Below, one piece after another: positions 3,865-53,574 of a stretch of DNA of 64,000 nucleotides. The stretch is taken from the NCBI GenBank assembly GCA_965223395.1, contig OZ244996.1, positions 2,064,876-2,128,875 of the forward strand, read 5' to 3'. The notes below the pieces were generated by a model. It did not search any database. It was given only the letters and a program-made list of their open reading frames with translations, and was not told the origin of the DNA. Both the position numbers and the translations under genes were made by a program. How positions within the stretch are numbered: position 1 is the stretch's first letter; the number at the start of each line of letters is the position of its first letter. Source of the stretch: Candidatus Promineifilaceae bacterium. GTDB taxonomy: Bacteria; Chloroflexota; Anaerolineae; Promineifilales; Promineifilaceae.

Positions 3865-4758
3865 TTATCCCTTCAGTCCCGAAGTAGCGATTCCTTCGGT
3901 AAATTGCTTTTGTGTAAAGAAATATACCACCAAAATAGGCAAAATTGTGATCACTGCGCCAGCCATTTGCAAATGAAAATCAGAGCCAGCCTCGTCTAAA
4001 AAGGCTAACATCCCATAAGAAATAACCCGCCAATCTGGCGATGTGGTCACCAAAATGGGCCAAGCCAACGCATTCCAAGAGCCGACAAAGCCGAACAAAA
4101 TAATGGTGACTAGCGGCGCCCTGGACAATGGCACCATAATTCGCCACAAATAGCGTAAATGTCCAGCCCCATCAATTTGCGCTGAATCCCATAGTTCCTT
4201 AGGAATTTGCATAAAAAATTGGCGCAGCAAAAAGATATTAAATGCGCTCGCCATAAAAGGAATAGTTAAAGCGGGCCAATTATCAATCCATTTAACGGGA
4301 CCTATTTGCCCCAACCAAGAAACGGTGATGAAATTTGGCACCCAGGTAATTGCCTCAGGCAACAGTAAGGTAGACAAAACCAAGCCAAACAAAAAATTTT
4401 TGCCCGGAAACTCTAACATGGCAAAGGCATATGCCGCCAACGTACAAAAGACAACTTGACCTACCAAAATCAAGGCAGTCACTTTGACGGTATTCCAAAA
4501 ATAGAGCGAAAATTTCGCTTCGTTCCACGCCTCGGCGTAATTGCCCCACTGGGGAATTCTGGGCAGAAAGGCGCCGCCAGTCGCCTCTGTTAAATTCATC
4601 AAAGAGACGCTAATAGTGTATAAAAAAGGCACCAGCGCCACTACCGCTCCAACAATCAAGAAGATATATGCGATTATCCGCCCGATATCATATCGTTGAG
4701 CGTCGGGATGTTCCGTTGTGGCTCTATCTTGTCGATTAAGCGTAATTGAATCAGCCAT
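3865..4758 (-). CDS. Carbohydrate ABC transporter permease (MalG-like)
   Basis: 297 aa, 6 TM, EAA-loop motif [21 protein letters not shown]. Confidence 0.85.
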
Positions 4759-37252: not shown

Positions 37253-37299
37253 GCGGGGGAATGTAGAGGCGGTAGGTTGTTCGTCAGACCATAGGCCAA

Positions 37300-37485
37300 A
37301 ATGATTTTGACACAGAGAACACGGAGGGACAGAGGGCACAGAGATTTTTTAGAGGCTCCTTTTCGGGCAGTTTTTATAGCTTTTGGCAGATACCGTGTCA
37401 AAATTTTGCCAAAGTTGCCTTCTTTTCTCATTTTCTTCTCTGTGTTCTCCGTGTCTTCTCTGTTACCTCTGTGTCCACCTGTACC
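37300..37485. repeat. Long imperfect inverted repeat (MITE-like/structured RNA) with CCATCGTC direct repeats after it
   Basis: Arm1 ttgacacagagaacacggagggacagagggcacagag (approx 37305-37343) pairs with arm2 ctctgtgttctccgtgtcttctctgttacctctgtgtc (approx 37440-37478); inner attttgacac/gtgtcaaaat pair; tccatcgtccatcgtccgccatccatcgtcc at 37511-37541. Confidence 0.5.
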
Positions 37486-37559
37486 TGTATAGTTACATGA
37501 TTTTTACACATCCATCGTCCATCGTCCGCCATCCATCGTCCCCAAAAAAGGAGAACCCA

Positions 37560-39230
37560 ATGACAGAAAACAACGCAATACAATTATTAATCCAAGCCAA
37601 ATGGCATGATTTAACGGCGGGATTATCCATTTTTACCCCCCCTTTCCCGGGTGAAAAGGCGTTGCAAGTCCACTTTTTTAAGCGGCTAACGGGGGCGTAT
37701 GGAGGCGGACAAGGGGCAAATGGGCAGTTGATCGAGTGGAGCAACAACACCGGTACGCATCTGGTGGGTCCGCGCGCCTTTCATTCGGGAGCAGAAGCGA
37801 TAGCGGATATTCCGTTGGAACGTTTATGCGGAGAGGGGGTCATCGTAGATATTTCGGATGCCGTTTCTGACTACAGTTTGTACACGCCGCAGATGATCAC
37901 TGATCGGGTGGAGGTGAAAGAGGGGGACATCCTGCTCATCAACACCGGCTACCATAAATATGGACACGATCAGCCAGACACGCCCAATCCCAACGCCCAA
38001 GGGGGCATCGAAAATAAAGAGTTTGGCTACTACGTCCGCCATCCGGGACCGTCGCCAGACTTTTTTGCGTGGGCATTAAAGATGAAGTTGAAGTTGGTTG
38101 GGGTGGATTGTGGCTGTGCCGAACATCCGATGAATACGAACATTCGGTATGCCCACGCCCGGGAGTTTGAGAAGGCGGAGACGAAGTTGCAGGCGGATGC
38201 CGGCATTTCATGGGATGAGCATTTTCCACCAGAATGGTATCATCAGTTAACCCACATCGAGATGCCCAAAGCGGGTTTGCTGTTGGCAGAAGGGTTAGGG
38301 GGGCAAATTGGCGAGTTAAGCAACCAAAGGGCTTGGGTGATGATTCAGCCGATTCCCTATATGGAAGTGGAGTCGGCATGGTGTCGGGCAGTGGCATTAA
38401 CGCCGCCTGCCGGCATGAAGCAAAGCGACTTTTTTGCCCAGATGAGCCAGATTGACATGCTGGACATGACTTTGCCATTTAGCGTACAAACGCCGCAATG
38501 GGCAAATTATGAGCCGTTGACCGTCACCTACACCAAACGGGTGGGCGGGCAATATTTTGGGTTGGGGCGCAACAACGCCCATTGCCGGGCTAGCTTCCAT
38601 TTAGCCACCCATATGGATGGAGAGAAACATTTCCATATTGCCGGCAGATCCATCGGCGAAACCCCGCTCGACTATTGGTTTGGGGCAGGCGTGGTGGCAG
38701 ATATCTCCCATCTGGTCAGCAATTCCAGCGTGTACACCCCCGAAATGATCGAAAGCGTGGTGAACGTTCAAGAAGGGGATATCCTGATCGTCAAAACGGG
38801 GTGGCACAAATATGGTTGGAACAGCCCCGACTCCGACGAGTTTCGGTACATGATCAAACATCCGGGACCGTCGCCCGACTTCGGGGATTGGTGCATCGCC
38901 AAAAAAATCAAATGGCTCGGGGTAGATTGCGTGGCAATGGAGCATCCGATGAACACCATTCAACGCATTTGGCATCCCAAAACATTTGAAGAGGCGAATC
39001 AAAAGCTGATTGAGCAATTTGGAGCTGATTGGGACGAAGTGTATCCATTGGACAAATATTATCAAGATATGCACCTCAACCTCTTCCCGAAAGGAATTGT
39101 CCATGCCGAAAATTTAGGCAAGCAAATTGCCGATGCGGAAAGCGGACGTTATTTTATCGGTTGTTTTGTGCAAAAAGGGATGGAATTGGCGTCTTGTTGG
39201 GCGCGGATGGTGGCGTTTAGGGACAATTGA
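37560..39230 (+). CDS. Tandem-domain cyclase-family protein (two PF04199-like cyclase domains fused)
   Basis: Start ATG 37560 after AAGGAGAA; domain 1 NNTGTHLVGPRAFH, domain 2 ATHMDGEKHFH; both followed by EGDIL(L/I)I motif seen in the single cyclase. Confidence 0.65.
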   Translation: MTENNAIQLLIQAKWHDLTAGLSIFTPPFPGEKALQVHFFKRLTGAYGGGQGANGQLIEWSNNTGTHLVGPRAFHSGAEAIADIPLERLCGEGVIVDISDAVSDYSLYTPQMITDRVEVKEGDILLINTGYHKYGHDQPDTPNPNAQGGIENKEFGYYVRHPGPSPDFFAWALKMKLKLVGVDCGCAEHPMNTNIRYAHAREFEKAETKLQADAGISWDEHFPPEWYHQLTHIEMPKAGLLLAEGLGGQIGELSNQRAWVMIQPIPYMEVESAWCRAVALTPPAGMKQSDFFAQMSQIDMLDMTLPFSVQTPQWANYEPLTVTYTKRVGGQYFGLGRNNAHCRASFHLATHMDGEKHFHIAGRSIGETPLDYWFGAGVVADISHLVSNSSVYTPEMIESVVNVQEGDILIVKTGWHKYGWNSPDSDEFRYMIKHPGPSPDFGDWCIAKKIKWLGVDCVAMEHPMNTIQRIWHPKTFEEANQKLIEQFGADWDEVYPLDKYYQDMHLNLFPKGIVHAENLGKQIADAESGRYFIGCFVQKGMELASCWARMVAFRDN

Positions 39231-39509: not shown

Positions 39510-40571
39510 ATGGAACTGTTTGCCGCATTGCCAGATAGAGCGCAAGCTGTAATTTATATTGCCATTGGATTGGCGCTTTTATATGGCGCATTGTTTATTT
39601 TGGGGCACATTTTGTTTAAGGGGGATGAGGCATGGCGGACGCTGTTTGTACTTGGCGGATTTGTGGCGGGGGGCATAGCGGCGTCGCTCTATTTGGATAA
39701 TCAACCTATATTGCCGGCAACCATCGTGGCTAAAAATGAACAGGTTTACATTAACAGAATTATATTTGGGTCTGATGTAAGTTGGGATAATCAATTTGAG
39801 CTAACGGCAAAATTTATCCCAGACGGAGAAAGCCAACCGGTAGAAGCTGTCTTATCTGCCCAGGGCGCCCAATTTGATGGGTTCGCCGTGGGCGAGGCTA
39901 TTGAGATTAAACATTGGCGGGCTGGCGGGGCGCTTGAACTGGCGCGATTGTCGAATCGCTCCACATTTTCTCTACTTCTCGGCTCCAGCATGTGGCGAGC
40001 TGTTTTATTGATCGCTTTGGGAGTCGGGCTGGCATGGGCAGCCAGCGCTATTCGCAAAGATGTAACGGCTGGATTGTTTGTAGCTGCCATCTATATCGTA
40101 TTCATATTGGGAGGGACTATCGCCTCTCAATGGTTGAAGGCGGCGCCCATTAGAGGGGCATCAAAACCAACAACTGGAACGGTAATTCAGGTGACGCACA
40201 GATCGCAAACATTTTCTGCTAGACCTCGAACTCGCATGAAACTCCTGCAACCCATTGAGTTTTGGGAAGTGGAGTTTACGCCGCCCGAAGTTGGGGACAA
40301 GGTACGAGGGGTGGATGTAATAGATGCCGGCATTTTACAGGGCGAGTACGGCGACCAAATCAATTTCGTTTACGACCCCGATAATCCCCGCCGCATTCAG
40401 TTGGTTGACGGCAGACGACTTTACGCGGTGAAAAATGGGATTTCGCCTACTGGGACTCCCCTTCTAATCTTCGCTATCGCCGCTTGGTTTTTCCGCCCTG
40501 GCAAAAAATGGCGTTCCGATAGCAAGAAAAGGGAAGGCGACAGGGAAGCAAATCAGGCTGCAAAGCGGTAA
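39510..40571 (+). CDS. Hypothetical membrane protein (two TM + beta-rich repeats)
   Basis: GGGGAGG RBS; hydrophobic helices at N-terminus, middle and C-terminus; no recognisable catalytic motif. Confidence 0.4.
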   Translation: MELFAALPDRAQAVIYIAIGLALLYGALFILGHILFKGDEAWRTLFVLGGFVAGGIAASLYLDNQPILPATIVAKNEQVYINRIIFGSDVSWDNQFELTAKFIPDGESQPVEAVLSAQGAQFDGFAVGEAIEIKHWRAGGALELARLSNRSTFSLLLGSSMWRAVLLIALGVGLAWAASAIRKDVTAGLFVAAIYIVFILGGTIASQWLKAAPIRGASKPTTGTVIQVTHRSQTFSARPRTRMKLLQPIEFWEVEFTPPEVGDKVRGVDVIDAGILQGEYGDQINFVYDPDNPRRIQLVDGRRLYAVKNGISPTGTPLLIFAIAAWFFRPGKKWRSDSKKREGDREANQAAKR

Positions 40572-42874
40572 ATTCTGTCAGGTTCAGATTCCCGAATAGC
40601 GAAAATGAGCAAGGCATCGTCTAACACAAACAGCGGGCGGGCGGCTTGCGCCAGCCATCTTTCGCCGTCGAGTTCCAAACTGATTTCGGCTGATTGGGGC
40701 ATATATCGGTTTGCCAAAATCTCCCTCAACAATGCCGGCATCTCTCTTTCTGGCTCCTTATATCGAATAAAAGATTTATCCTCCATCACCGCTTCTACAA
40801 TTTGGGCGCCTGGTTGGCTATCGTCAGGCACAGGCACATCTACCGAAGCCAACTCAAGCCCGGGGATAGATTTAGGCGTTGAAGAAGCCGATTCTAAATT
40901 GTCAACCAGCGCCTGCCATTTGGGAGTCGCTTTCGCCTTGCCATCCGTCAATTCCCATAACCCCCACATCTGATTGTCGTAGCCGCTATAAATAGAATAG
41001 GCGCAATGCAGCCCGCCGCCCAATTGCCGCCAGCCATCCATAAAACGTTGGTAAGCTGCCCCGGCAAGCCGGGATCGATTGTAGGATTGAAAGAGCGTTT
41101 TCAGCGGGGCGCTGCCGGCATTCAGATGTTGACCCCACTCATAGCTCCACAACGCAACCCCAGCCTGATCCGCCAACGCTTTATGTTGGGCGCATGCCGG
41201 CAAAACCGCCGCATCGATAAAGTCCACTATTTGCTGATGTAAATGCTGTGCATCTGCCGCCTGGCTAATGCCCTGCCCAAAATAGGGGGCGACAGCCACC
41301 GCTGCCGGACGATAGCCGCCCAACGCCTGCAACAATTGTTCGGCGATCCAGAGGTTAGCCGCCTGACCAGATATAACCACATCTCCATCATCGCCAACCA
41401 TTTCAATCAATTTTTGGGTTTGGCTGGCTTGAAAAGCGATAAATGAATAGGTTGGATTCTCGAGCCCGCCCCGTTTTACGGCGTAATGATGTTGGTCGAA
41501 CTGATTGTTCCACAGTTCATTTGAAAATTCAAAAATCGGGGGAAATTCTGCATTGTCAATGGCATAGGTGACCATCTGCCTCATCAATTTGTTTTTAGCC
41601 CGATGGGGAATGCACAGCCAGGGACGCGCCCGAAAATGGTTGGCGCACTTAATGATGATTTCTAATGGCACGCCGAGAAATTCGTCCCAAGCGCCCTCCT
41701 CATATTTCCAATTTTTCTCTGTTTCGCCGATATATCGGTGCGGCAAATCTGACCAGCGGCGGGCGGGATTGTTGTTGATTTTTTGCCAATCCATAAAACG
41801 AATGACGTCGAATTTCGCCAATTGCATCTCTTCCAACATCTGAAAATTTTTTCCATCTTCAGAAACTGCGGTTGCCGGCAATGCCTCGAAATGACCCACG
41901 TTAATGCCGGCATTCAGCTTTTTCTTTTTTTCTTTTGGCGGCTCAGTGGGTTGTTCGATCGGCGCTGGCTCTGGGATTGGCGTAACCGGGATAATGAGCT
42001 GGTAGGGGGTTTTATCTTTCAAATAGCGGGCAAGTTTGTCGCTAGCCGCCTCTATGTTAGGGTGGTGTGACATCCAATCGCCATAGGTCCAAGCGCAAAA
42101 CGCCACGATGAGATAATGCTCTGGCTTTAGACACCATTTGTCAAATCGTTCATAATCTGCCATTACTTGGTCTGTGCCGGCAAAACCTACCCCCCCATTT
42201 TGCCCCGCCTCGCCAATCACAATCGGGATATGTACTCCTTGCGACGCCAGATAGACCGCCTCTTCAAATGGGCGGGCGGTATTGTCAGTTGATGGGGAGC
42301 CGTCGGGCATCGTCAACATTTTTTCCGCATTCAACGGGACGCCGCCATAGGCATGCCGGCAATACAAATGCCCACCCTGCCGCCCCCGCTCCAAATGGGG
42401 AACCACTCGATCAACCCAGGGTTGCCAATCGGGCGAATCGCCGGCAAAACCAGTCAACGCTAGTCGGGCGCCCTTCGCTTCGAAAAACGCCATCAACCCC
42501 CGCTCATATGCCAACACATTTCGCAGCGATTTGACGCTCTCCGGCGTGTCCCCCCTGCCGCCCGTCTCATTTACTGGCTGAAAATAGACATTGTCATACC
42601 GTTCATGAACGGGTTTAAATTTTTCCCACAATTTAGCTCCCCAATAGTCGCTAGCCGACTCAAAAGCGCGTTGTTCGCTGATATGGTCGATATCGCCGGG
42701 GGCATCTTCGTGATTGTGCACCGTTTGGGTCCGCCAAATCTTAATGGTGGATGGCGGACATTCATCGAACGCCCCAGCTTCCAAGGCAACGACTGCCGCT
42801 GGCGCCGCACGCGCCACATCCCCATACCCTCGCCGACTGCCTTGATTTACATGAATGCCCAACTTGGTGAACAT
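40553..42874 (-). CDS. Two-module putative glycoside hydrolase (TIM-barrel GH-like domains) with uncharacterised C-terminal domain
   Basis: 773 aa; no signal peptide; Pro/Glu/Lys linker PIPEPAPIEQPTEPPKEKKKK between modules; FEFSNELWN resembles GH clan-A NEP acid/base motif. Confidence 0.4.
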   Translation of the reverse strand: MFTKLGIHVNQGSRRGYGDVARAAPAAVVALEAGAFDECPPSTIKIWRTQTVHNHEDAPGDIDHISEQRAFESASDYWGAKLWEKFKPVHERYDNVYFQPVNETGGRGDTPESVKSLRNVLAYERGLMAFFEAKGARLALTGFAGDSPDWQPWVDRVVPHLERGRQGGHLYCRHAYGGVPLNAEKMLTMPDGSPSTDNTARPFEEAVYLASQGVHIPIVIGEAGQNGGVGFAGTDQVMADYERFDKWCLKPEHYLIVAFCAWTYGDWMSHHPNIEAASDKLARYLKDKTPYQLIIPVTPIPEPAPIEQPTEPPKEKKKKLNAGINVGHFEALPATAVSEDGKNFQMLEEMQLAKFDVIRFMDWQKINNNPARRWSDLPHRYIGETEKNWKYEEGAWDEFLGVPLEIIIKCANHFRARPWLCIPHRAKNKLMRQMVTYAIDNAEFPPIFEFSNELWNNQFDQHHYAVKRGGLENPTYSFIAFQASQTQKLIEMVGDDGDVVISGQAANLWIAEQLLQALGGYRPAAVAVAPYFGQGISQAADAQHLHQQIVDFIDAAVLPACAQHKALADQAGVALWSYEWGQHLNAGSAPLKTLFQSYNRSRLAGAAYQRFMDGWRQLGGGLHCAYSIYSGYDNQMWGLWELTDGKAKATPKWQALVDNLESASSTPKSIPGLELASVDVPVPDDSQPGAQIVEAVMEDKSFIRYKEPEREMPALLREILANRYMPQSAEISLELDGERWLAQAARPLFVLDDALLIFAIRESEPDRIYRFAA

Positions 42875-43002
42875 AATTGCCTCCTGCGCCTATTATGCCA
42901 CACTTTTACCATTTGAGTTTGGATTGTTTTTGATTGTCGTTTACTATTAGAGAGTGACAACAACCTCCTAACCTTCGGAGGTTAGCTGAATGAGGAAAAC
43001 CG

Positions 43003-45363
43003 ATGAGTACCAAAAGCTTCGGACAACGCATTAAACGAAACGAAGACCCCCGTCTGCTGATGGGGCAAGCCCTCTTTGTGGATGATATTCAACTGCCAAA
43101 GATGGTACACCTCGCCTTCGTCCGCTCCCCTTATGCCCACGCCCGCCTGCTGAGCATTGACATCAGCGAGGCGGAACAAATGCCCGGCGTGGTCGCCATT
43201 TACACCGCCGAAACGCTTGGCGATTATTGGCAAAAAGGTCCCCTTCTCGTCCCGCCGCCCCCCATCGAAGGGATGGCGTTTAACGAGCGCACCCAAGTCC
43301 CTTTGGCAAAAGATAAGGTGCGGTATGTGGGCGAACCGGTGGCGGTGGTGGCGGCAGAAAGCAGATATTTGGCGGAGGATAGCGCCGGCATGGTGTGGGC
43401 AGATTACGAACCATTAGAGCCAGTGGTTACGATGGATCAAGCGATTTCCGCCGATGCGCCAACCGTACACGACGACGTGCCACTGGTTGAGGGGAAACTG
43501 AACAACATCAACGCCCATTTGACCCAAGTTAAGGGAGATGGTAGAAAGTTTGATGAGATTGCAGAAAACGCCCACCATCTGGTCAAAAGGCGGTTTTATT
43601 ACGACCATGGGGCGTCGTCGCCAATGGAAACGCGGGGCATTGTAGCAGATTGGGATAAGCGTGCCGGCAAAATGACGATTTGGGACACCACCCAAGCCCC
43701 CGTTTTTATTCGCAACGGCATGGCGGCGTATCTAGGACTATCCGAAAACCAAGTGCGGGTGATCGCCCCCTTTATTGGCGGCGGCTTTGGTCCCAAAATT
43801 ATGATGTTTTACCCTGCCGAAATGCTCACCCCCTGGATTGCCATGCAACTCAATCGCCCTGTCAAATGGATTGAAGATCGTGCCGAGCATTTTGTTGCCA
43901 CCACGCAGGAACGTGACCAAATCCATGAGGCAGAGATGGCTTTAGACGAAAAAGGACGCATTTTAGCTATTCGTGATCGCTTTTTGCACGATGCCGGCGC
44001 TTATGCCCCTTACGGCTTGACAGTGCCCCTCAACAGCCAATGCACCTTACTGGGCTGTTACGACATCCCCCATTACTTCAGCCAATTTAGCTCCCTGTTT
44101 ACCAACAAGCCCATCGTCACCCCCTACCGAGGAGCGGGCAGGCAACATGGGGTGTTTGTGATGGAGCGATTGCTGGATATTGCCGGCAAAGAGCTAGGGA
44201 TTGACAAGACGGAAATGCGACGACGCAACTTTATCCCGCCTGATAAATTTCCCTACCAAAATGAAATCATCTACCAGGATTTTGCCCCGCTCACTTACGA
44301 CAGCGGAAATTACGAACCGGCGTTGGACAAGGCGTTGGAGATGATCAACTACGACCACTTTTACGCTAAAACAAAGCCCGAAGCGGAAAAAGCGGGCAAG
44401 GCGGTCGGGCTAGGCATCGTTTGCTATGTGGAAGGGACGGGGATTGGACCTTATGAAGGAGCGCGGGTGCAGGCGCAAAACAATGGACGGGTCAGCGTAG
44501 CGACAGGCATTGGCACGCAAGGGCAGGGACATTTTACGGTCTTTGCCCAAATTGTGGCGGATCAGTTGGGGGTGGATGTGGCAGATGTGGATGTGGTAAC
44601 GGGGGATACGGATCAATTTCATTGGGGCGCCGGCACTTTTGCCAGCCGAGGGGCGGTGGTTGCCGGCAACGCTATCAACGAGGCGGCAAAAGATGTGCGG
44701 AGTAAAATCTTGAAGCTGGCAAGCGATACGTTAGAAGCAGATGAAGTGGATATTGAGTTGGCTGAGGGGACAGCACGGGTTAAAGGGTCACCCGATTCTG
44801 CCATCACATTGGGGCAGTTGGCGCAAATGGCAAACCCGATGCGGGGGGCGGTCAAGCCGGGCACAGAGCCAGGGCTAGAATCGAGCAACTATTTTGGTCC
44901 TGAGTATGGGGCAACGGCAAGCGGCGTTCACGCCATGATCATCGAGATTGATCGGGAGACGATGTTGCTGGAGATTAAAAAGTATGTCGTCGTGCATGAT
45001 TGTGGGGCGGTGATCAACCCGCTCATTTTGGATGGGCAAATTCATGGCGGGGTGGCGCAAGGCATTGGCAATGCCTTTTATGAAAAGCTGGCGTTTGATG
45101 AAAATGGGCAGTTGTTGACTGGCTCGTTTATGGATTATTTGTTGCCGACGGCGTTGGATGTACCGGGGATGGAGATTGACCATATCACCACCGAATCGCC
45201 GTTAAATCCGTTGGGCATCAAAGGGGCGGGGGAAGCGGGGGCGATTCCGGTGGCGCCGTTGTTTGCTCAGGCGATAGAGGATGCGTTGGGAATGCCGGCA
45301 CTCGAAATTCTGGAAATGCCGCTTAGCCCCAGCCGTCTGTGGGAGTTGGCTGAAGAGGTGTAG
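43003..45363 (+). CDS. Xanthine dehydrogenase/CO dehydrogenase family molybdopterin-binding large subunit (form II CoxL-like)
   Basis: N-terminus RIKRNEDPRLLMGQALFVDD; form-II active-site loop PYRGAGR; 786 aa; no CoxM/CoxS-like genes adjacent. Confidence 0.8.
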   Translation: MSTKSFGQRIKRNEDPRLLMGQALFVDDIQLPKMVHLAFVRSPYAHARLLSIDISEAEQMPGVVAIYTAETLGDYWQKGPLLVPPPPIEGMAFNERTQVPLAKDKVRYVGEPVAVVAAESRYLAEDSAGMVWADYEPLEPVVTMDQAISADAPTVHDDVPLVEGKLNNINAHLTQVKGDGRKFDEIAENAHHLVKRRFYYDHGASSPMETRGIVADWDKRAGKMTIWDTTQAPVFIRNGMAAYLGLSENQVRVIAPFIGGGFGPKIMMFYPAEMLTPWIAMQLNRPVKWIEDRAEHFVATTQERDQIHEAEMALDEKGRILAIRDRFLHDAGAYAPYGLTVPLNSQCTLLGCYDIPHYFSQFSSLFTNKPIVTPYRGAGRQHGVFVMERLLDIAGKELGIDKTEMRRRNFIPPDKFPYQNEIIYQDFAPLTYDSGNYEPALDKALEMINYDHFYAKTKPEAEKAGKAVGLGIVCYVEGTGIGPYEGARVQAQNNGRVSVATGIGTQGQGHFTVFAQIVADQLGVDVADVDVVTGDTDQFHWGAGTFASRGAVVAGNAINEAAKDVRSKILKLASDTLEADEVDIELAEGTARVKGSPDSAITLGQLAQMANPMRGAVKPGTEPGLESSNYFGPEYGATASGVHAMIIEIDRETMLLEIKKYVVVHDCGAVINPLILDGQIHGGVAQGIGNAFYEKLAFDENGQLLTGSFMDYLLPTALDVPGMEIDHITTESPLNPLGIKGAGEAGAIPVAPLFAQAIEDALGMPALEILEMPLSPSRLWELAEEV

Positions 45364-45416
45364 TGGGATGAAATGCAATTAGGAAAAATATTGACAAACA
45401 TCTGCCATGACGATAG

Positions 45417-45554
45417 CAAAAGATACCAAGATGTATGCCTATGATGCCTACATCTTGGATTGTGCGTTGAGACATGTAGCTCCCTTATTGACGTTAGACA
45501 GAAAACTTGCTGTTGTTGCACAAAGGCTCGGAATTGAGGTTTTAGAGGTATAAA
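45417..45554 (+). pseudogene. Remnant C-terminal fragment of PIN-domain (VapC-like) toxin
   Basis: 46-codon ORF ending DAYILDCALRHVAPLLTLDRKLAVVAQRLGIEVLEV, matches PIN-domain C-terminal conserved region; N-terminal approx 90 aa missing. Confidence 0.5.
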
Positions 45555-45555
45555 T

Positions 45556-45774
45556 ATGCACGTTTACACATATTCAGAAGCCCGACAAAAGTTGGCTCTT
45601 GTACTTGAGCAAGCTGAATCAACAGGTAAAGTTATCATCCGGCGAAAGGATGGACGCACTTATGCCTTAACCCCTGAAAAAGGTATCACATCACCTTTAG
45701 ATGTGCCGACGATTGAAGCAGACATTACCACAGAGGAAATCGTCAAAATTGTTCGTGAAGGACGGGAAAGGTAA
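45556..45774 (+). CDS. Phd/YefM-family type II antitoxin
   Basis: MHVYTYSEARQKLALVLEQAESTGKVIIRRKDGRTYAL matches YefM/Phd N-terminal consensus; 72 aa. Confidence 0.65.
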   Translation: MHVYTYSEARQKLALVLEQAESTGKVIIRRKDGRTYALTPEKGITSPLDVPTIEADITTEEIVKIVREGRER

Positions 45775-45797
45775 AGGGGCGGGTAGAAGCGGGAATG

Positions 45798-45870
45798 CCG
45801 TTGTTTGCTCAGGCGATAGAAGATGCGTTGGGAATGCCGGCATTGGAGATTTTGGAAATACCCCTTAGCC
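45798..45870 (+). repeat. About 73-bp direct duplicate of the coxL-like 3' end (copy 1 at 45256-45328)
   Basis: ccgttgtttgctcaggcgatagaRgatgcgttgggaatgccggcaYtSgaRattYtggaaatRccSctt shared, approx 90% identity. Confidence 0.8.
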
Positions 45871-45971
45871 TCATGCGTACCCAAGATAGTTACAGGATCG
45901 AAATAATGTCAATCTTTGACCATTTTCCCAAAAATAATACGACATCTATATAGCATGAATAGGGGTTTTTC

Positions 45972-46733
45972 TTGACTGATTCTACCACTTTAGAAAAAGC
46001 AAAATTATACGAAAAATACCGTCTTCCGTATGCAAATGCAGTTGCAGACGATCTCCTGAATAGGATCGGCAAATGTGAGGTTATTGCCGATATTGGAGCA
46101 GGAACAGGTCAACTGACGCGGCTATTTGCAAATAAATGCAAGAAAATCTACCTTGTTGAACCAAGCCTTGCTATGCGAACAGTTGCCTCTTTCTCTTGTG
46201 GCAAATTCAAGACAGTCGAAATTTGTGCAAACTCTGCGGAACAAATAGCTGTAGCAGAGAATAGCATCGATCTTATCGTCATAGGAAATGCCTTTCACAG
46301 ATTTAGACCGGAAGCTACTAAAGAACTTCGTCGTATCTTAAAAAAGCATGGTTGGGTTGCACTGTTTTCATACAAATTTAAAAATCAAGCCTTTACACAA
46401 ATGCTCTTTTCAAAACTTGCTACATTACGTAGCTTATCAGGAAAAATTGACAAGGCTTGGCACAAGACGCCTATTCAAGAATTATTTGGCGGATGTCAAA
46501 CCCAAACAGTAAGTTATCCTCAATCACATGAACAAGATTGGACAGCTTTTTTCGGCGCAGCGTGTTCAGGTATTGAAGCTCCAGAACGTACAGACCGAGA
46601 ATTTGCCCAATTTGAGCGAATCAATCGTGAAGTATTTGATAAATTTGCGGTAAATGGAATATTTCAGATCGATTTCGAGACTCATGTATTATTCGGACGA
46701 CTATTTTGTTTGGGCGCCAATGAGATTTCGTAA
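45972..46733 (+). CDS. Class I SAM-dependent methyltransferase (AT-rich, likely horizontally acquired)
   Basis: VIADIGAGTGQLT motif I; GC clearly lower than flanks; TTG start; no TGCCGGCA palindromes. Confidence 0.65.
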   Translation: MTDSTTLEKAKLYEKYRLPYANAVADDLLNRIGKCEVIADIGAGTGQLTRLFANKCKKIYLVEPSLAMRTVASFSCGKFKTVEICANSAEQIAVAENSIDLIVIGNAFHRFRPEATKELRRILKKHGWVALFSYKFKNQAFTQMLFSKLATLRSLSGKIDKAWHKTPIQELFGGCQTQTVSYPQSHEQDWTAFFGAACSGIEAPERTDREFAQFERINREVFDKFAVNGIFQIDFETHVLFGRLFCLGANEIS

Positions 46734-46806
46734 GTGATGATGCTGGGACATTTCCAGTGGCGCTGCTGTTTTCTAATGTTATTGAAGCGTCAAGATTGAC
46801 ATCGCC

Positions 46807-48060
46807 ATGATTAACTTTGACAAAAGAAGCGCAAAAGGCGGGGGAATCAAACTTAATCTGCTCATTGCCGGCATCGCCACCCTGGTTACCCTATACGCCA
46901 TCGAGGCCTTCCTCTTTTTCAACGGCAACCCGCTTGATTATCGCAGCCCCCACTTCATCGCCGCCCGGCAGCAAGGCGTCGATTTCGACCGACGCACCCC
47001 GCTACAACTCGTCTCCGACTTACGCGATAGCGGGGAAGCGGTGTACCCATTCGTTTCGCCCAGCGCCTTCCTCGACTTTTTGCCCCACATTGACGGGCGA
47101 GACACCTACGCCCTGACCAGCGTCGCCGACGTCCGCACCGTGTACTGTAACGAGAGCGGCGATTACATTTTGTATGAGAGTGACCGATATGGTTTGCACA
47201 ATCCCGACCAGGTGTGGGATGTTTCGCCAGCAGATATTCTTGCCCTGGGCGACTCATTCACGCAAGGGGCTTGCGTTTCGTCAGACAAAAACATAGTCGC
47301 TTTGCTGCGCAGCCGTTATCCTAACACAATCAATTTGGGGGCAAACGGCAATGGTCCATTAAGCGCGTTGGCAGGGCTGATGGAGTATGGCGCGGTTTAT
47401 CAACCCAAAAAGGTATTGTGGTTTTACTTCGAAGCCAACGATCTGGGCGATTTGCTGATAGAGCGAGACAATCCGATTTTGGCTCGCTATTTGAGTGGAG
47501 ATTTCAGCCAAAATTTGATCGCCAGACAAGACAGCATCGACGCCCACCGCCGCGACTATGTGGAGGCGTTGTTGACAGATGTTCAACAAGGGCGACGGCA
47601 GCAGGCGTGGGCAACGTTGCGTTTGTACAATTTGCGACGGCTGTTGGGCTGGACGCGAGAAGATGAGGCAGAAGATGCCGGCATCCCCCACCCCATTGCA
47701 AACGCCGCCCTGCCTCCCTACCAACCTGAACCCGATTTGCTCTATGACGAAGCTGCCCCGCTGCTCAAAGAGATATTGTTAACCGCCCAAACGCTGACCG
47801 AATCGTGGGGAGGCGAGCTGATATTCATCTATTTGCCAGATTATCAGCGGTATGCCAAAGATGGGGCGGAAGATCGTCTGTATCGGGGAATTACCATGCA
47901 AAAGTTGGGTGAAACGACCATCCCTATAATTGATATCCATCCCGCATTTGCCGCCCATCCTGACCCTGTTTCGCTATTTCCGTACGGGCTGGAAGGGCAT
48001 TACACCGCAGAGGGATATGCTCTAGCGGCAAAAACGATTCTCGAACGACTTAACCCTTAA
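46807..48060 (+). CDS. Membrane-anchored SGNH/GDSL-hydrolase-like protein (AlgX/AlgJ-like)
   Basis: N-terminal TM; ILALGDSFTQG block I GDS motif. Confidence 0.55.
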   Translation: MINFDKRSAKGGGIKLNLLIAGIATLVTLYAIEAFLFFNGNPLDYRSPHFIAARQQGVDFDRRTPLQLVSDLRDSGEAVYPFVSPSAFLDFLPHIDGRDTYALTSVADVRTVYCNESGDYILYESDRYGLHNPDQVWDVSPADILALGDSFTQGACVSSDKNIVALLRSRYPNTINLGANGNGPLSALAGLMEYGAVYQPKKVLWFYFEANDLGDLLIERDNPILARYLSGDFSQNLIARQDSIDAHRRDYVEALLTDVQQGRRQQAWATLRLYNLRRLLGWTREDEAEDAGIPHPIANAALPPYQPEPDLLYDEAAPLLKEILLTAQTLTESWGGELIFIYLPDYQRYAKDGAEDRLYRGITMQKLGETTIPIIDIHPAFAAHPDPVSLFPYGLEGHYTAEGYALAAKTILERLNP

Positions 48061-48758
48061 GCCGGGCGGCGTTTGGTTCGACGCTTTGCTGGCTTGCCGA
48101 TAAGTTTGGCGATTGCCGGCAATTGCTCCCCCTGCCTCATCGGTGCAGCCACTTTGTTTAACGGCACAGTCGGGGCGGGTTGCGCCATCAACGCCGCCAA
48201 CCGCTCTTCCAATGCCCCTAATCCTGTCTCGCGTACCTGTAACGGCAAACCCAGATAATCCGCCGCTTCTTGGGCTTGCGCCAACAATTGTGGCGTGGGA
48301 TTTTGCGCCAAATACAACGCCCTTTTGTAATGTTTGAAATAGATTTCCTTTAGCTCAGGATGGCGGTCCAACCCCATGCCGCGCATAATCGTCCCTTTAA
48401 AGCCCCGTACCAAATAATCGGTCAGAAAAAAAGTGCCCGGCTCCTCCGCCATCCACTTCTGAAAATCCTCCCCGCCATACATTTCGTAGCAATGGGGTCC
48501 CGCCACCCGCTCTACCCCATGATGCGCCAACAACCCATCCAACTTACCGCCCGTCCCGCAATCGCCAAACAAGACAATCAGCCGCTCGAACTCATTTCGC
48601 AACTCAAGAATGCGCTTTTCTACATCGGGGGGAATGCGATCAACCAGCACATGGTTTAATGCCGGCACAGCTTTAACCTCTGCCTGCCAACCATGCCGTT
48701 GAATCATCTCCAACGTCTCTCGACCCAACGCCCCGCAAATGATAAAAGCCGTCTTCAT
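48057..48758 (-). CDS. DUF1638 domain protein (accessory to corrinoid methyltransferase systems)
   Basis: 233 aa; family typically adjacent to pterin-binding/corrinoid proteins; last gene of minus-strand operon. Confidence 0.5.
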   Translation of the reverse strand: MKTAFIICGALGRETLEMIQRHGWQAEVKAVPALNHVLVDRIPPDVEKRILELRNEFERLIVLFGDCGTGGKLDGLLAHHGVERVAGPHCYEMYGGEDFQKWMAEEPGTFFLTDYLVRGFKGTIMRGMGLDRHPELKEIYFKHYKRALYLAQNPTPQLLAQAQEAADYLGLPLQVRETGLGALEERLAALMAQPAPTVPLNKVAAPMRQGEQLPAIAKLIGKPAKRRTKRRPA

Positions 48759-48770
48759 ACTGCGGCTACA

Positions 48771-49667
48771 TCATCCTCGCCGCCGGCGCCGTTCGCGCCG
48801 TTTTTCCCCTGAGGGGGCAGGCTGACGGTTGGCTTGGATCCAGGCGATACAATTTTCATCGTTGCCCATCATCACATCCGCCGCCATAATCGCCGTTTTA
48901 ATGTGGGATTCAATCGGATTGGTGATAGCGGACGACAAGCCAGCCGCCATCGCCATCGCTAAAAACGTCCCATTCAGCGGACCCCGCTCCGGCAACCCAA
49001 AGGAAACGTTAGACGCCCCACAGCAACAATTGCAACCCAACTCATCTACTACCCGGCGCACAATGGAAAAGACCTGCCTGCCGGCATACCGCATCGCCCC
49101 AATCGGCATTACCAGCGGGTCGATCAACACATCTTGGCGGGGAATGCCATAATCTACCGCCCGTTCTACGATCTTTTTAGCGACGGCAAAGCGCGCGTCG
49201 GGGTCTTCCGAAATGCCCGTTTCGTCGTTGGAGATGGCAATAACGGCGCAATTGTGCTTTTTGACCAGGGGCAGCACCGCTTCCAGCCGCTCTTCTTCGC
49301 CGGTGACAGAGTTGAGCAACGCTTTGCCTTCATACGCCGCTAACCCTTGCTCTAAGGCGGCTACTATCGACGAGTCGATGCTGATCGGCACATCGGTAAC
49401 GGATTGTACGGCGCGGATCGCTTCGGCTAAGATAGCGGGCTCGTCTGCCAATGGAATGCCGGCATTGACATCCAACATATGCGCTCCAGCTTCAACTTGG
49501 GCGATGGCGTCTTTTCTCACCCGATCGTAATTGCCGGCAGCCATCTCTGCCGCCAATAATTTTCGCCCCGTTGGATTTATCCGCTCTCCAATAATGGTAA
49601 AGGGGCGATCCGGGCTGATAATGATGGTTTGCGTTTTGGAACTGATTACGGTTTCAATCTTTTTCAA
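48771..49667 (-). CDS. Pterin-binding methyltransferase (methyl-THF:corrinoid methyltransferase, MetH pterin-domain/AcsE-like)
   Basis: FTIIGERINPTG, DVNAG, and ISIDSS motifs of DHPS-like pterin-binding barrel. Confidence 0.8.
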   Translation of the reverse strand: MKKIETVISSKTQTIIISPDRPFTIIGERINPTGRKLLAAEMAAGNYDRVRKDAIAQVEAGAHMLDVNAGIPLADEPAILAEAIRAVQSVTDVPISIDSSIVAALEQGLAAYEGKALLNSVTGEEERLEAVLPLVKKHNCAVIAISNDETGISEDPDARFAVAKKIVERAVDYGIPRQDVLIDPLVMPIGAMRYAGRQVFSIVRRVVDELGCNCCCGASNVSFGLPERGPLNGTFLAMAMAAGLSSAITNPIESHIKTAIMAADVMMGNDENCIAWIQANRQPAPSGEKRRERRRRRG

Positions 49668-49697
49668 CGTTTATCTCCGCGTTCGCGCTTTAACCAG

Positions 49698-50672
49698 TTA
49701 ACCCCTTCTGCGGCGCCTGGTTCGCCGTTTGGCTTGTCCATTGGTCGAGAATTGTCGCCCTTGCGCCACGATCTCTTCCGCCAAAACCGGTTGTTGTAAC
49801 GCTCTTGCCATAGCGGCAATATGCGCCGGCGTATTGCCGCAGCAGCCGCCAATCAGCCGCGCCCCCAACTTCCGCAGCCGCTGGGCGTACATCCCCATCA
49901 CTTCTGGCGTGCCATTATATTGTAATTGATTGTCTATCCATTCGGGAATGCCGGCATTCGCCTTAGCGATCAGCGGTTGGTTAGGGTCGATCTGGCGCAT
50001 GGCATGAACTACCGCTTCGATCTCATCCACCCCATTGCCGCAGTTTGCGCCAAACGCCAACAAGTTCCAACTCGACATCGTTTCAAACGCTTGTTGAGGC
50101 GTCACCCCCATCATGGTACGCCCTTTGGTATCAAAGGACAGGGTGACGCACAGCGGCTTATCGCTGACGCGGCGCGCCCCCTCCACCGCCGCTTTCGCCT
50201 CGTTGAGGTCGCTCATCGTCTCCACCCAAAAGAGATCGACGCCGCCCGCTTCCAACCCCGTCGCTTGTTCGGCAAAGGCGTCAACCGCCGCCTCATAACT
50301 CATCTCGCCCATCGGCTGCAACAGCTCGCCCGATGGTCCTAATGAGCCAGCTACAACAACCAAATGGGGGGCATCGTCTGCCGCTGCCCGGGCATGTTCC
50401 GCTGCCAAGCGGTTCAGTTCCACCACCCGATCTTGTAAATTATGCAATTTGAGGCGATAACTAGTTCCGCCAAAACTGTTGGTCAATATCAGCCGAGAAC
50501 CAGCCTCGATATACGCCTGGTGCATCCCTTTGATCGTTTCGGGTCGGCTATAATTCCATTCTTCGGGCGGGGCGCCATCGCTTAACCCCTGATCAAACAA
50601 ATAGGTGCCGGTAGCCCCATCGAGCAAAATGATTTCTTGATTGCCTAATAGTTGTTGTAAGGGATTGGTCAT
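49698..50672 (-). CDS. Homocysteine S-methyltransferase domain protein (MetH Hcy-binding module)
   Basis: ILLDGATGT N-terminus; zinc ligands incl. GGCCGNTPAHI; ATG 50672 with AAGGAG upstream. Confidence 0.8.
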   Translation of the reverse strand: MTNPLQQLLGNQEIILLDGATGTYLFDQGLSDGAPPEEWNYSRPETIKGMHQAYIEAGSRLILTNSFGGTSYRLKLHNLQDRVVELNRLAAEHARAAADDAPHLVVVAGSLGPSGELLQPMGEMSYEAAVDAFAEQATGLEAGGVDLFWVETMSDLNEAKAAVEGARRVSDKPLCVTLSFDTKGRTMMGVTPQQAFETMSSWNLLAFGANCGNGVDEIEAVVHAMRQIDPNQPLIAKANAGIPEWIDNQLQYNGTPEVMGMYAQRLRKLGARLIGGCCGNTPAHIAAMARALQQPVLAEEIVAQGRQFSTNGQAKRRTRRRRRG

Positions 50673-50713
50673 TACTCGTTCATTCTCCTTGAGCAAGCGG
50701 GCAACTTTGTAGA

Positions 50714-51436
50714 TTACTTGCTATCTGCAACTTGCAGACCTGTCACTCTTTCCTGGCGGATTTTCATCAACTTTTTGGCGGTATCTACCGCCACAGCAGC
50801 GTCGCGGCAATAGGCGTCAGCTTCAATATCTTCGGCAAACGCTTCATTTAGCGGGGCGCCGCCAACCAGCACGATGATGTCATCTCGAATGCCGGCATCT
50901 TTGAGTTCATTCACCACTACGCGCATGTAGGGCATCGTCGTCGTCAATAAGGCGCTCATCCCCACGATATCGGGATTGTGTTCTTTGATAGCGTCCATAA
51001 AGGATTCGACATCGTTGTTGATGCCGATGTTGAACACCTCAAAGCCGGCTCCTTCCATCATCATCGCCACCAAATTTTTGCCGATGTCATGAATATCTCC
51101 CTTTACCGTGCCAATGACCATTGAGCCCACTTTGGGCGCGCCGGTTTCCGCCAACAGGGGGCGCAATAGCCCCATCCCCGCTTTCATCGCTTTTGCCGCC
51201 ATCAACACCTCTGGCACGAACAAAATGCCATCTCGAAAATCATCCCCAACGATTTTCATGCCGGCAACCAACCCCTTGGTCAACACATCATATGGGGTCA
51301 TCCCCCGATCCAATACCTCTTGCACTTCTTCGACGACCTCATCGGCATAGCCATCATATAAATCCTCCCCCATCAATTCCAACAATTCATCCAAATTCAG
51401 TTCAGAAAGAACGATCTCTTGCTGCTCGTCACTCAC
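50714..51436 (-). CDS. Cobalamin-binding corrinoid protein (B12-binding cap + Rossmann)
   Basis: DIHDIGKNLV (DxHxxG) and SALLTTTM motifs. Confidence 0.85.
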   Translation of the reverse strand: MSDEQQEIVLSELNLDELLELMGEDLYDGYADEVVEEVQEVLDRGMTPYDVLTKGLVAGMKIVGDDFRDGILFVPEVLMAAKAMKAGMGLLRPLLAETGAPKVGSMVIGTVKGDIHDIGKNLVAMMMEGAGFEVFNIGINNDVESFMDAIKEHNPDIVGMSALLTTTMPYMRVVVNELKDAGIRDDIIVLVGGAPLNEAFAEDIEADAYCRDAAVAVDTAKKLMKIRQERVTGLQVADSK

Positions 51437-51552
51437 ACTCGCCTCCGAAAAGGGTTTAAAAATATCCGTTCCATTGTAGCGCTAAATTAAAAACTAGCTT
51501 GGATTCTCGGTAAAATTTGGGCGGAATTCCCGCAGCCAACCAATTGCAACGA

Positions 51553-53574
51553 TCAGATCGCTACTCGGCGTCGCTTTCGACGGCGTTTAGGCTGCTGTTT
51601 TGGCAGTAAGTCCGCCAAATGAGGGAATGAGTCGTTGGCGTGGGGCAGATGGATCGCCGCCACAAACTCCTCCTGAAAACTGGCGTCTACTGCCGTTTCG
51701 ATATAGCGTGTCCAATGGGCGATTTTCTGAGCCTCCTGTCGTTTTTCCTTGTTGAGCAAGGCGATGCGAGCGCCATCGCCAGCGGCGTTGCCTACTGCCG
51801 TCACCTTGTCTAAAGCGCAATCTGGAATAAGACCGAGGATCATGGCGTATTTGGGATCGATGTAGCTTCCAAACGCCCCTGCCAACAAGATTCTGTCCAC
51901 AGTAGAGATGCCGGCATGGTTCATCAACAATTTTGTTCCAGCATACAATGCCGCTTTTCCCAATTGGATGTTGCGCACGTCATCTTGGGTAATAGCAATC
52001 GGCTCGCCGCTGCTGGTTTCCTCTGCCGTCGCCAACAGATATTGTCCTTTGACGCCTTGCCAGGAGATCCGTTCGTGGCTTATCTCTGGGTCAAAGCGAC
52101 CATCGGCGCGGATGATGCCGGCCAGATATAACTCTGCTACCGCTTCGATGATGCCCGACCCACAAATGCCGGCAGCCAACTGAGCCGGCCGTTCTATCTG
52201 CGGGGCGTCATCTGTCAATTGCCAATCATTCGACCACCGCTCTTCGCCAATCAGCCGGAATCGGGGCTCTTTCGTTATGGGATCTATGCGCACCCGCTCA
52301 ATGGCGCCCAACGCCGCCCGCATCCCAAATTTTATTTGCGCCCCTTCAAATGCAGGACCCGTTGGGCTGGAAGCGCTAAATAGCCGCTCTCTGTTGCCAA
52401 GCACAATTTCGGCGTTGGTGCCAACGTCAACCATGAGGGTGATTTCGTCCTGGCGATATGGCGTTTCGGCTATTAACGCCGCCACATTGTCCGCCCCAAC
52501 ATGTCCGGCTTGCGCCGGCAAAATGTGAACATTTGCCCCGGGGTGCAACCGCAACTTTAACAGCCGCGCTTTGTAATCGACCGCGTCGCGGGTAGCTAAA
52601 GCAAATGGCGCGCCCCCCAACTCCACAGGGTCGATGCCCAACGCGATATGAATCATGGTGGTGTTGCCCACCAAAACCGCTTCGTGGATGTCGCGGGCGC
52701 GAATGCCGGCGCTGCGGGCGATACGGGCAGCCAATTTGTTTAAGGCGTCGATGATCGCTTCATGCATTTTGCTCAACCCATCTGCATTCATCATGGCATA
52801 CGAAATGCGGCTCATCAAATCTTCGCCATACGCCACCTGTGGATTCATGGTCGATTCAGTCGCCAACAATTCGCCCGTTCGCAAATCGCACAGATAGCCT
52901 GCCACCGTAGTGCTGCCGATATCGACCGCCAGCCCGTATGCCCCCTCCTGGTAGCCGGGCGACACGTCAATAACCTGTTGATCATTCCATAGAATGACGG
53001 TCGCCTTTCGCCGCCCCTGACGCAATGCGGACTGTAATTTACGCAATGCCGGCAAATCGATGACTAATCCATCCACGCCCCATTGCTCCTCTATCGCTGC
53101 CGCCAACCGCTTCCAATCCCCCCGATGTTCGCCCAGCGCCGCTTTTTCCACTACAACATAATATTGGCGAATGGCGGGCTGAACCGCAATCGTCCGCTCA
53201 GTGGCGGATTTGCGGATGATTTGCTTTCTTCCCCGGCTCTCTTCTGGGATAAAGATCAAAGCGTCCCCATATAGTCGGGCGTCGCATGCCAACCTGCAAT
53301 CGGAAGCGCCTATGCTGGCTAACAACTCCTGTTCCGTGGTCGTCGCCGGGCTTAAATTGCCGGCATCTGAAGCGATGTTATGCTTTTCAAACCGCCCCTC
53401 TTCCAACCGAATTTTGCATTTGCCGCAGGTTAATTTGCCGCCGCAAATACTCTCGATTTCAATGCCCAATTGGCGAGCGGCATCCAGTATGGTTGTGCCT
53501 GCCAGCATTTCGCCCCGCCTGCCTGCCGGCATAAAAATCGCCTGGTATTTTTCTTGGTCATTGAGTTTGGACAT
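51553..53574 (-). CDS. RACo-family ATP-dependent reductive activator of corrinoid proteins ([2Fe-2S] ferredoxin + ASKHA/DUF4445)
   Basis: N-terminal plant-type ferredoxin Cys pattern CGGKLTCGKCK; C-terminal ASKHA ATPase-like 500 aa; 673 aa. Confidence 0.7.
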   Translation of the reverse strand: MSKLNDQEKYQAIFMPAGRRGEMLAGTTILDAARQLGIEIESICGGKLTCGKCKIRLEEGRFEKHNIASDAGNLSPATTTEQELLASIGASDCRLACDARLYGDALIFIPEESRGRKQIIRKSATERTIAVQPAIRQYYVVVEKAALGEHRGDWKRLAAAIEEQWGVDGLVIDLPALRKLQSALRQGRRKATVILWNDQQVIDVSPGYQEGAYGLAVDIGSTTVAGYLCDLRTGELLATESTMNPQVAYGEDLMSRISYAMMNADGLSKMHEAIIDALNKLAARIARSAGIRARDIHEAVLVGNTTMIHIALGIDPVELGGAPFALATRDAVDYKARLLKLRLHPGANVHILPAQAGHVGADNVAALIAETPYRQDEITLMVDVGTNAEIVLGNRERLFSASSPTGPAFEGAQIKFGMRAALGAIERVRIDPITKEPRFRLIGEERWSNDWQLTDDAPQIERPAQLAAGICGSGIIEAVAELYLAGIIRADGRFDPEISHERISWQGVKGQYLLATAEETSSGEPIAITQDDVRNIQLGKAALYAGTKLLMNHAGISTVDRILLAGAFGSYIDPKYAMILGLIPDCALDKVTAVGNAAGDGARIALLNKEKRQEAQKIAHWTRYIETAVDASFQEEFVAAIHLPHANDSFPHLADLLPKQQPKRRRKRRRVAI

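Follow-up and report, generated by a model that had tools for sequence, protein, structure and literature searches.

A short segment of the genome of Candidatus Promineifilaceae bacterium (Chloroflexota; assembly GCA_965223395.1, contig OZ244996.1) raises the question of how the 3′ region of a coxL-like gene came to be present twice, with a broken toxin-antitoxin module between the two copies. The segment lies around position 45,000 of a 64,000-nucleotide stretch (positions 2,064,876 to 2,128,875 of the contig), which is referred to here as the window and whose numbering is used throughout. A reading made from the sequence alone had taken the duplicated gene end for the footprint of an integration event, and had placed the module and an AT-rich methyltransferase gene beyond it at the decayed edge of one mobile element or genomic islet. 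The answer proposed here, which is given about an even chance of being right, is that the locus is a recombination scar together with a decaying toxin-antitoxin module rather than a working mobile element, and that an incoming coxL 3′ end and the module attached to it displaced the resident 3′ end.

The duplicated gene end and the module between its copies

The coxL-like gene (43003..45363, + strand) is intact and encodes a protein of 786 amino acids (aa) with matches to Pfam Ald_Xan_dh_C, MoCoBD_1 and MoCoBD_2. The predicted product is a molybdopterin-binding subunit of the xanthine dehydrogenase family, which scores 933 bits against the NCBIfam model CODH_aero_grp5, slightly under the cut-off of 950. 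Its C-terminus (...EILEMPLSPSRLWELAEEV) agrees with the conserved tail of its orthologs.

The core of the direct repeat pairs 45255-45336, within coxL, with 45797-45878 downstream, over 82 nucleotides (nt) that are 88% identical without gaps, and the copies are 542 nt apart. By alignment and by eye, the similarity runs further left, with indels, to 45221 and 45773 (AAAGGGGCGGG...AAGCGGG). On the right it ends at 45336 and 45878 at the latest and is doubtful already past about 45328 and 45870, for a repeat length of 82-116 nt. Copy 1 (45221..45336, + strand) belongs to the functional gene, and its divergence from the closest relative, the locus L167 described below, is contiguous with that of the rest of the gene. 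Copy 2 (45773..45878, + strand), which appears to be what is left of a second coxL allele's 3′ region, carries an insertion of 1 nt and then a deletion of 12 nt at its left edge, such that the reading frame is broken. At a minimum, the duplicated segment leaves out the final 27 nt of coxL (LWELAEEV*). The 12-nt deletion also creates an ATG that opens a 52-codon open reading frame (ORF) at 45795-45953 (MPLFAQAIEDALGMPALEILEIPLS...), which is probably spurious. The duplication described from sequence alone, as a second copy of about 90% identity, is thus real and does not dissolve on proper alignment, but what is copied is not the last 73 bp of the gene, given that the repeat stops at least 27 nt short of the gene end.

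The region is also distinct in composition. GC content is 0.38-0.47 across 45250-46900, as compared to 0.52-0.58 in the flanks. The GC content of third codon positions (GC3) is 0.29 in the methyltransferase gene and 0.34 in the antitoxin gene, Phd, as compared to 0.55-0.62 in the neighboring host genes, with the exception of an ORF of 353 aa (0.49). The comparison of GC and codon usage that had been suggested as a check does reveal a dip across the region, which is strongest in the methyltransferase.

About 436 nt lie between the repeats and consist of the coxL tail, the remnant of a PIN (VapC-type) toxin gene and Phd; the only ORFs of at least 60 aa between them are Phd itself and reverse-strand ORFs that overlap it. 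A junction spacer (45364..45394) leads from the coxL stop codon to the PIN remnant, and its first 8 nt read TGGGATGA, versus AGGGATGA in L167. The remnant (45395..45553, + strand) is truncated at its 5′ end and holds about the last 50 of 130 codons, with an ORF that runs from the ATG at 45407. This ORF (45407-45553) matches positions 86-118 of the 120 in the Pfam PIN profile, in the last third of the domain, with E = 0.0023 and a score under the gathering score. Homology to the C-terminus of intact PIN proteins of 130 aa (L161) begins at about 45395, and in-frame stop codons are found upstream. A complete toxin of about 130 aa with its N-terminal part is not present, as about 80 N-terminal codons are gone. 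Most of the conserved acidic catalytic residues of PIN domains sit in those first 80 or so codons. Because the toxin lacks this part, the module is predicted to be dead as an addiction or defense unit.

The orphan antitoxin gene of the Phd/YefM family (45556..45774, + strand) is intact, encodes 72 aa and has a GAGGT Shine-Dalgarno sequence 8 nt upstream. Its product matches Pfam PhdYeFM_antitox with E = 8e-7 and 29.1 bits (gathering score 29.8) and scores above the cut-off of the NCBIfam model phd_fam. Homologs are numerous (2865 were found), and the best 120 of them are 76-88% identical to the window antitoxin; among these 120, most are exactly 72 aa long, with ...REGRER* as the usual end. 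The window antitoxin shares both this length and this end, suggesting that it is complete. The degraded toxin-antitoxin pair of the sequence-only reading, with the C-terminal remnant of a PIN toxin after the CoxL stop and an intact Phd/YefM-like antitoxin, is therefore upheld.

In relatives in which the module is intact, a PIN gene for 130-135 aa is followed, 1-2 nt past its stop codon, by a Phd gene for 72 aa, and this arrangement is found in two unrelated contexts (PIN stop and Phd start at 3998/4001 in L161-L166 and at 2499/2501 in L174). The PIN stop of the window is at 45553 and the Phd ATG at 45556, with the same 2-nt spacing as in L161. Because both order and spacing match those of the intact relatives, the window holds a single toxin-first PIN-Phd module in the native order of its family, and not two half-modules. 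The placement of toxin before antitoxin is known from the type II modules higBA, hicAB and mqsRA, which the PIN-before-Phd order resembles. The intact toxin-first PIN-Phd modules differ from that of the window in that their toxin is complete, whereas that of the window is without its first 80 or so codons. Neither a terminator-like site on the + strand from coxL to the methyltransferase gene nor a convincing promoter for Phd was found.

The setting of the module in L161 (1-5000; also in L162-L166), which comes from an unrelated low-GC organism, consists of small genes arrayed mostly in one orientation, in the order Phd-PIN, a gene for 174 aa, PIN-Phd, a GNAT acetyltransferase, ParD/ParE on the opposite strand, PIN-Phd and a fragment of a DDE transposase. 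In its gene layout, this array resembles a cassette array.

Age of the block and ancestry of the second copy

The only close relative found for the locus, L167, was reached via the 90% cluster of the antitoxin. It encodes a CoxL protein of 786 aa that is 93% identical to that of the window, followed directly by a Phd of 74 aa. The window aligns with L167 over 42993-45371 at 86% identity and over 45489-45770 at 90%. Both genomes continue past the coxL stop with (T/A)GGGATGA, and the 117 nt at 45372-45488 of the window are absent from L167, in a deletion between two TGA microhomologies that leaves L167 with a toxin remnant even shorter than that of the window. The homology stops at the last sense codon of Phd, such that the Phd gene of L167 lacks the stop codon of its family. 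Neither copy 2 nor the methyltransferase gene is present in L167, and alignment of the flanks on both sides is no better than that of shuffled controls.

The assignment of L167 to the lineage of the window is supported by an 8-nt palindrome, TGCCGGCA, which occurs 135 times in the window as compared to 2.5 expected (for example at 45293-45300 and 45835-45842). The same palindrome occurs 26 times in the 10.1 kb of L167 (1-10119), at 2.6 per kb and spread over the whole locus, and 0-1 times in the loci of the next-closest relatives. Because this enrichment is common to both, L167 is taken to be a true member of the lineage.

Since the block of coxL, truncated PIN and Phd is common to L167, the toxin-antitoxin remnant is old. 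The junction between coxL and the truncated PIN gene evidently predates the split between the window and L167, and erosion of the toxin evidently went on in L167 after that split. The recent insertion supposed by the earlier reading is therefore not borne out. In the comparison with related genomes, which had been named as a check, the truncated PIN-Phd block appears ancestral to both lineages, and copy 2 and the methyltransferase gene are absent from L167.

The organism names attached to the CoxL relatives point to an Anaerolineae/Promineifilaceae-like member of Chloroflexota. In 160 loci from GTDB species genomes and Joint Genome Institute (JGI) metagenomes, the CoxL proteins are at most 77% identical to that of the window, and no common neighbor gene and no second copy of the coxL 3′ end were found. 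The next-best CoxL proteins (79-81% identical) are encoded in another, conserved operon, in which no toxin-antitoxin module lies past coxL, and the remoter relatives have no synteny with the window. Exact look-ups of the window CoxL and Phd gave no match, and an exact-cluster look-up among about 15 billion sequences gave no relative of at least 90% identity for CoxL, the methyltransferase, the GDSL-like protein downstream of it or a 773-aa protein encoded upstream of coxL.

Divergence from L167 can be used to compare the constraint on each part of the block. The synonymous (dS) and non-synonymous (dN) divergence between the window and L167 is 0.74 and 0.045 for the whole of coxL, 0.52 and 0.020 for its 3′ 900 nt, and 0.49 and 0.019 for Phd, the dS of which is close to that of the 3′ part of coxL. 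The resulting dN/dS of about 0.04 argues that the orphan antitoxin is under strong purifying selection. The 63 nt of the PIN remnant that are common to both genomes (45491-45553, versus 4936-4998 of L167) hold 5 differences, every one of them non-synonymous (Fisher p = 0.003 versus Phd). The remnant has thus lost its constraint as a protein. Reports of orphan antitoxins are common, for instance in Klebsiella (PMC7192599), and cross-neutralization by antitoxins has been reviewed (PMC7354431). The window resembles known orphan antitoxins and anti-addiction modules in that the antitoxin is intact and under selection after loss of the toxin, here in two lineages. A neutralizing role for the window Phd is putative.

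The differences between the two copies of the repeat suggest that copy 2 did not arise from copy 1. In the central 72 nt there are 7 differences, of which 6 are synonymous, and the probability of one or fewer non-synonymous changes among random substitutions is 0.0012. The sole amino acid difference is an Ile in copy 2 where copy 1 and L167 have Met. Ile is found at that position in nearly all of about 150 orthologs compared, so that copy 2 appears to keep the ancestral state and copy 1 groups with L167. Copy 2 is 88% identical to copy 1, 89.5% identical to L167 and at most 79% identical to every other ortholog, and copy 1, copy 2 and L167 are roughly equidistant. If copy 2 had evolved neutrally since the split between the window and L167, 8-19 changes would be expected at non-synonymous sites, as compared to the 1 observed. 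Moreover, four states specific to copy 1 are absent from copy 2. Given the synonymous bias, the ancestral Ile, the near-equal distances and the few non-synonymous changes, copy 2 looks like a piece of a third coxL allele in the clade, one that belonged to a working gene until fairly recent times, and not like an in-place duplicate of copy 1. Along coxL, the identity of third codon positions to the L167 gene ranges from 0.46 to 0.86 (150-nt windows), and this mosaic suggests past recombination inside the gene. The missing coxL tail was sought in 45879-46830, where the best score is within the shuffled range (mean 16, maximum 23).

The 63 nt of the PIN remnant that seem to be free of protein constraint have diverged by 8%, as compared to 36-38% at the synonymous sites of Phd and of the 3′ part of coxL. 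An Rfam scan of 45100-47000 gave no match, and RNA folding of the conserved region that spans the PIN remnant and the start of Phd, and of copy 2, gave z-scores of -0.2, 0.8 and 0.4, with no structure that accounts for the conservation. The conserved stretch may hold expression signals for Phd. A more far-reaching suggestion, for which the likelihood is low, is that two stretches with about fivefold less change than neighboring synonymous sites, namely the final 63 nt of the PIN remnant and the middle 72 nt of copy 2, are co-opted non-coding elements. If so, they would serve as a signal for the control or expression of an orphan antitoxin that has been domesticated to give standing immunity to PIN toxins, or alternatively as a micro-ORF; either way, a small new regulatory unit would be attached to coxL.

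Proposed origin of the scar

Building on what can be observed, namely the anatomy of the locus, the common ancestry of the coxL-truncated PIN-Phd block, the selection that acts on Phd and the divergence of copy 2, which is like that of an allele, a recombination mechanism, an order of events and the expression of Phd can be proposed. Two alleles of the coxL 3′ region stand in direct orientation and the functional one is followed by foreign DNA, suggesting that the incoming DNA carried a coxL 3′ end of its own. DNA from a close relative would have brought the 3′ part of coxL, through the stop codon, and with it a toxin-first PIN-Phd type II module. It might have arrived as linear DNA that paired with its homologous stretch of coxL and was joined illegitimately at its other end (homology-facilitated illegitimate recombination), or as a circular molecule taken in by a single Campbell-type crossover. 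In either case coxL would have gained a complete and functional 3′ end, made up of copy 1 and the tail, and the resident 3′ region would have been pushed downstream, where about 106 nt of it survive as the dead relic, copy 2. In this small sample of positions, the displaced segment looks like another allele of the anchor gene. Both the end of Phd (GGGAAAGGTAA) and the beginning of copy 2 (AAAGGGGCGGG) contain AAAGG, a possible microhomology for an illegitimate junction.

The first 80 or so PIN codons would then have been lost by deletion, and L167 would later have lost 117 nt more. Selection would have preserved an intact Phd, which is probably expressed by read-through from coxL and probably neutralizes related PIN toxins encoded elsewhere, a role that is putative. 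The AT-rich methyltransferase gene would be a separate and recent arrival in the dispensable tail of the relic, or a replacement of that tail.

A homology-facilitated illegitimate recombination mechanism has been proposed for displaced orphan immunity genes in type VI secretion system (T6SS) clusters of Vibrio cholerae and for orphaned 3′ regions of Rhs genes (PMC5361080). The window resembles the T6SS arrays and the Rhs and contact-dependent inhibition (CDI) loci described there in that a conserved anchor gene receives incoming DNA with a gene end of its own, and the former 3′ region stays downstream as a relic. The anchor in those systems is a toxin-delivery gene, whereas here it is a metabolic gene. 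The T6SS clusters form arrays, whereas the window has a single relic. Finally, the protective gene that is kept here belongs to the incoming block and not to the displaced one.

Several points weigh against displacement by an incoming gene end. It relies on one close relative, both flanks of which differ from those of the window; neither an empty site nor a donor allele was seen. The homology with L167 likewise stops right at the stop codon of Phd, and this coincidence is explicable only by selection that keeps Phd intact. The argument for a separate allele is built on only 7 substitutions, and both the lack of a native tail and the indels at the left edge of copy 2 require extra events. In addition, if the 8% divergence of the PIN remnant is truly neutral, then the local neutral rate is low, copy 2 could be an older relic that predates the split, and its dating no longer stands.

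The integration footprint of the earlier reading would correspond to classical site-specific integration into coxL via an attP site with a surrogate 3′ end, in which copy 1 is attL, copy 2 is attR, and nearly all of the element has since been deleted, the integrase with it. As in islands and prophages inserted at the 3′ end of a gene or tRNA, direct repeats of a 3′ region flank foreign, low-GC DNA, and a surrogate end keeps the gene intact. A stretch of 46 nt with one mismatch (45255-45300) could be the crossover core, synonymous changes between the copies would be expected if the attP site carried the gene end of another host, and toxin-antitoxin modules commonly stabilize islands. However, the suggested search for integrase remnants nearby found no integrase, transposase or remnant of either among the Pfam domains of ORFs of at least 150 aa at 30.9-63.6 kb, and collections of plasmid and phage DNA hold no match to the region and no related mobile element. 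A mere 436 nt or so are bracketed, copy 2 lacks the native coxL tail that a clean attR would have, and outside the 46-nt stretch the repeats, which are 88% identical overall, are not near 100% identity. L167 has the supposed element and no attR copy, and if the integration were older than the split between the window and L167, copy 2 should be far more decayed. Site-specific integration is thus unlikely: what is retained from the earlier reading is the arrival of DNA with its own coxL 3′ end, and what is not retained is the attL/attR arrangement, given the lack of an integrase and of a native tail.

The coding-like divergence of copy 2 from copy 1, which equals that of the L167 gene, could also come from a second, diverged coxL, either a paralog or a tandem allele, that once lay downstream of Phd and collapsed in a recent deletion that spared about 106 nt. 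CoxL-like genes are usually present in several copies in such genomes, and the neighborhood is heavily rearranged. Nevertheless, no relative has a tandem coxL, with the only second CoxL match in the 160 fetched loci being a distant one, 40% identical, in L039; direct tandem copies of 88% nucleotide identity would be unstable; and separate breakpoints would be needed at both edges of copy 2, making such a collapse distinctly unlikely. It is improbable, too, that 45221-45336 of coxL was simply duplicated in place when the module was inserted or the region rearranged, with slow decay of the second copy thereafter. The edges of copy 2 are indeed decayed, and slow decay is conceivable because the PIN remnant, presumably non-functional, differs from that of L167 by just 8%. 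The bias of the differences to synonymous sites argues against it, as do the four copy 1 states missing from copy 2, and a duplicate made after the split would need a back-mutation to Ile from the derived Met of copy 1 and L167. An assembly artifact, in which a metagenome contig switched between two co-existing strains and created a false duplication of two alleles, is very improbable, although the copies do resemble two alleles of one clade, the indels at the left edge of copy 2 lie in a G-rich run prone to consensus errors, and the source is a single 3.76-Mb contig without a close relative in the database. A plain strain switch would run copy 2 into the coxL tail, which it does not; no overlap between the end of Phd and codon 745 of coxL is able to cause a misjoin; and host composition resumes cleanly at 46807.

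With displacement by an incoming gene end as the preferred history, every component of the locus is of a known kind: a toxin-first PIN/Phd module, an orphan antitoxin under selection, a displacement scar and a foreign single-gene islet. The locus is ordinary genome erosion and not a new kind of system. It does provide a worked example, from uncultured Chloroflexota, of the stepwise erosion of a module, with nested toxin deletions in two lineages and an antitoxin that is still selected, and of a recombination event that can be recognized from a relic gene end with synonymous differences. No new question is opened by it, and its wider interest lies in the conserved nucleotides of the toxin remnant and in the TGCCGGCA palindrome of the clade.

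The methyltransferase gene and the neighborhood

Copy 2 is followed by an AT-rich spacer (45879..45971, GC 0.33) that is homologous neither to the coxL tail nor to any of the fetched loci. Beyond it, a class I S-adenosylmethionine-dependent methyltransferase of 253 aa is encoded at 45972..46733 (+ strand; Pfam Methyltransf_11/25). The GC content of the gene is 0.40, and its GC3 of 0.29 compares to 0.60 for the host, or 0.55-0.62 for most genes nearby, so that it is clearly below its flanks, as had been noted from the sequence. Homologs are 55-76% identical and include Anaerolineae proteins. The nearest is the gene P0126 in L171/L172, with 75% nucleotide identity and a GC3 of 0.34, which lies amid ordinary chromosomal genes. 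PADLOC gave only a generic match to a methyltransferase domain (mad2). The gene appears compositionally foreign and, because it lies outside the repeat-bounded segment of about 436 nt, it was probably acquired separately and later; the single element or islet that had been drawn to include it is therefore not supported. A spacer (46734..46806) leads to the gene for a GDSL-like hydrolase, where host composition resumes.

A perfect inverted repeat of 11 nt (ATGTCAATCTT / AAGATTGACAT, at 45906-45916 and 46792-46802) brackets the methyltransferase gene. It was considered as a mobility border and rejected, given that it is within chance (about 0.3 pairs expected, by a rough estimate) and comes with no target-site duplication. 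The borders of the gene show neither mobility genes nor a target-site duplication.

The absence of TGCCGGCA from the methyltransferase gene, to which the sequence-only reading had drawn attention, is genuine but uninformative. The palindrome-free stretch over the gene is 1031 nt long and is only the 11th largest gap between palindromes in the window, so that its use as a sign of foreign origin was rejected as within chance. The palindrome itself is a lineage-specific highly iterated one, reminiscent of the cyanobacterial HIP1, and a literature search found no paper that ties it to Chloroflexi.

Upstream of coxL, the + strand carries two cyclase genes, and a gene for AllG and one for an AllF-like coenzyme A (CoA) ligase lie 10-16 kb downstream on the - strand (cluster parts at 36377-39230, 55596-56840 and 59449-61146). 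In L168-L170 the order AllF-AllG-MOSC-cyclase-(PDDEXK)-coxL is colinear, suggesting that the cluster was broken in the window by inversion and insertions. Between the cyclase genes and coxL, the window has the ORF of 353 aa (39510-40571, + strand) and one of 773 aa (40553-42874, - strand), neither with a Pfam or PADLOC match, at the place where relatives have a small PDDEXK_3 gene. GC content in the 773-aa ORF dips to 0.45-0.47 around 41350-41950.

Further downstream, 48057-53574 (- strand) and 53765-55534 (+ strand) hold a set of genes for corrinoid-dependent methyl transfer with host-like composition. Its members are DUF1638, a pterin-binding methyltransferase, a homocysteine S-methyltransferase-like gene, a B12-binding protein, a RACo activator and a formate-tetrahydrofolate ligase.

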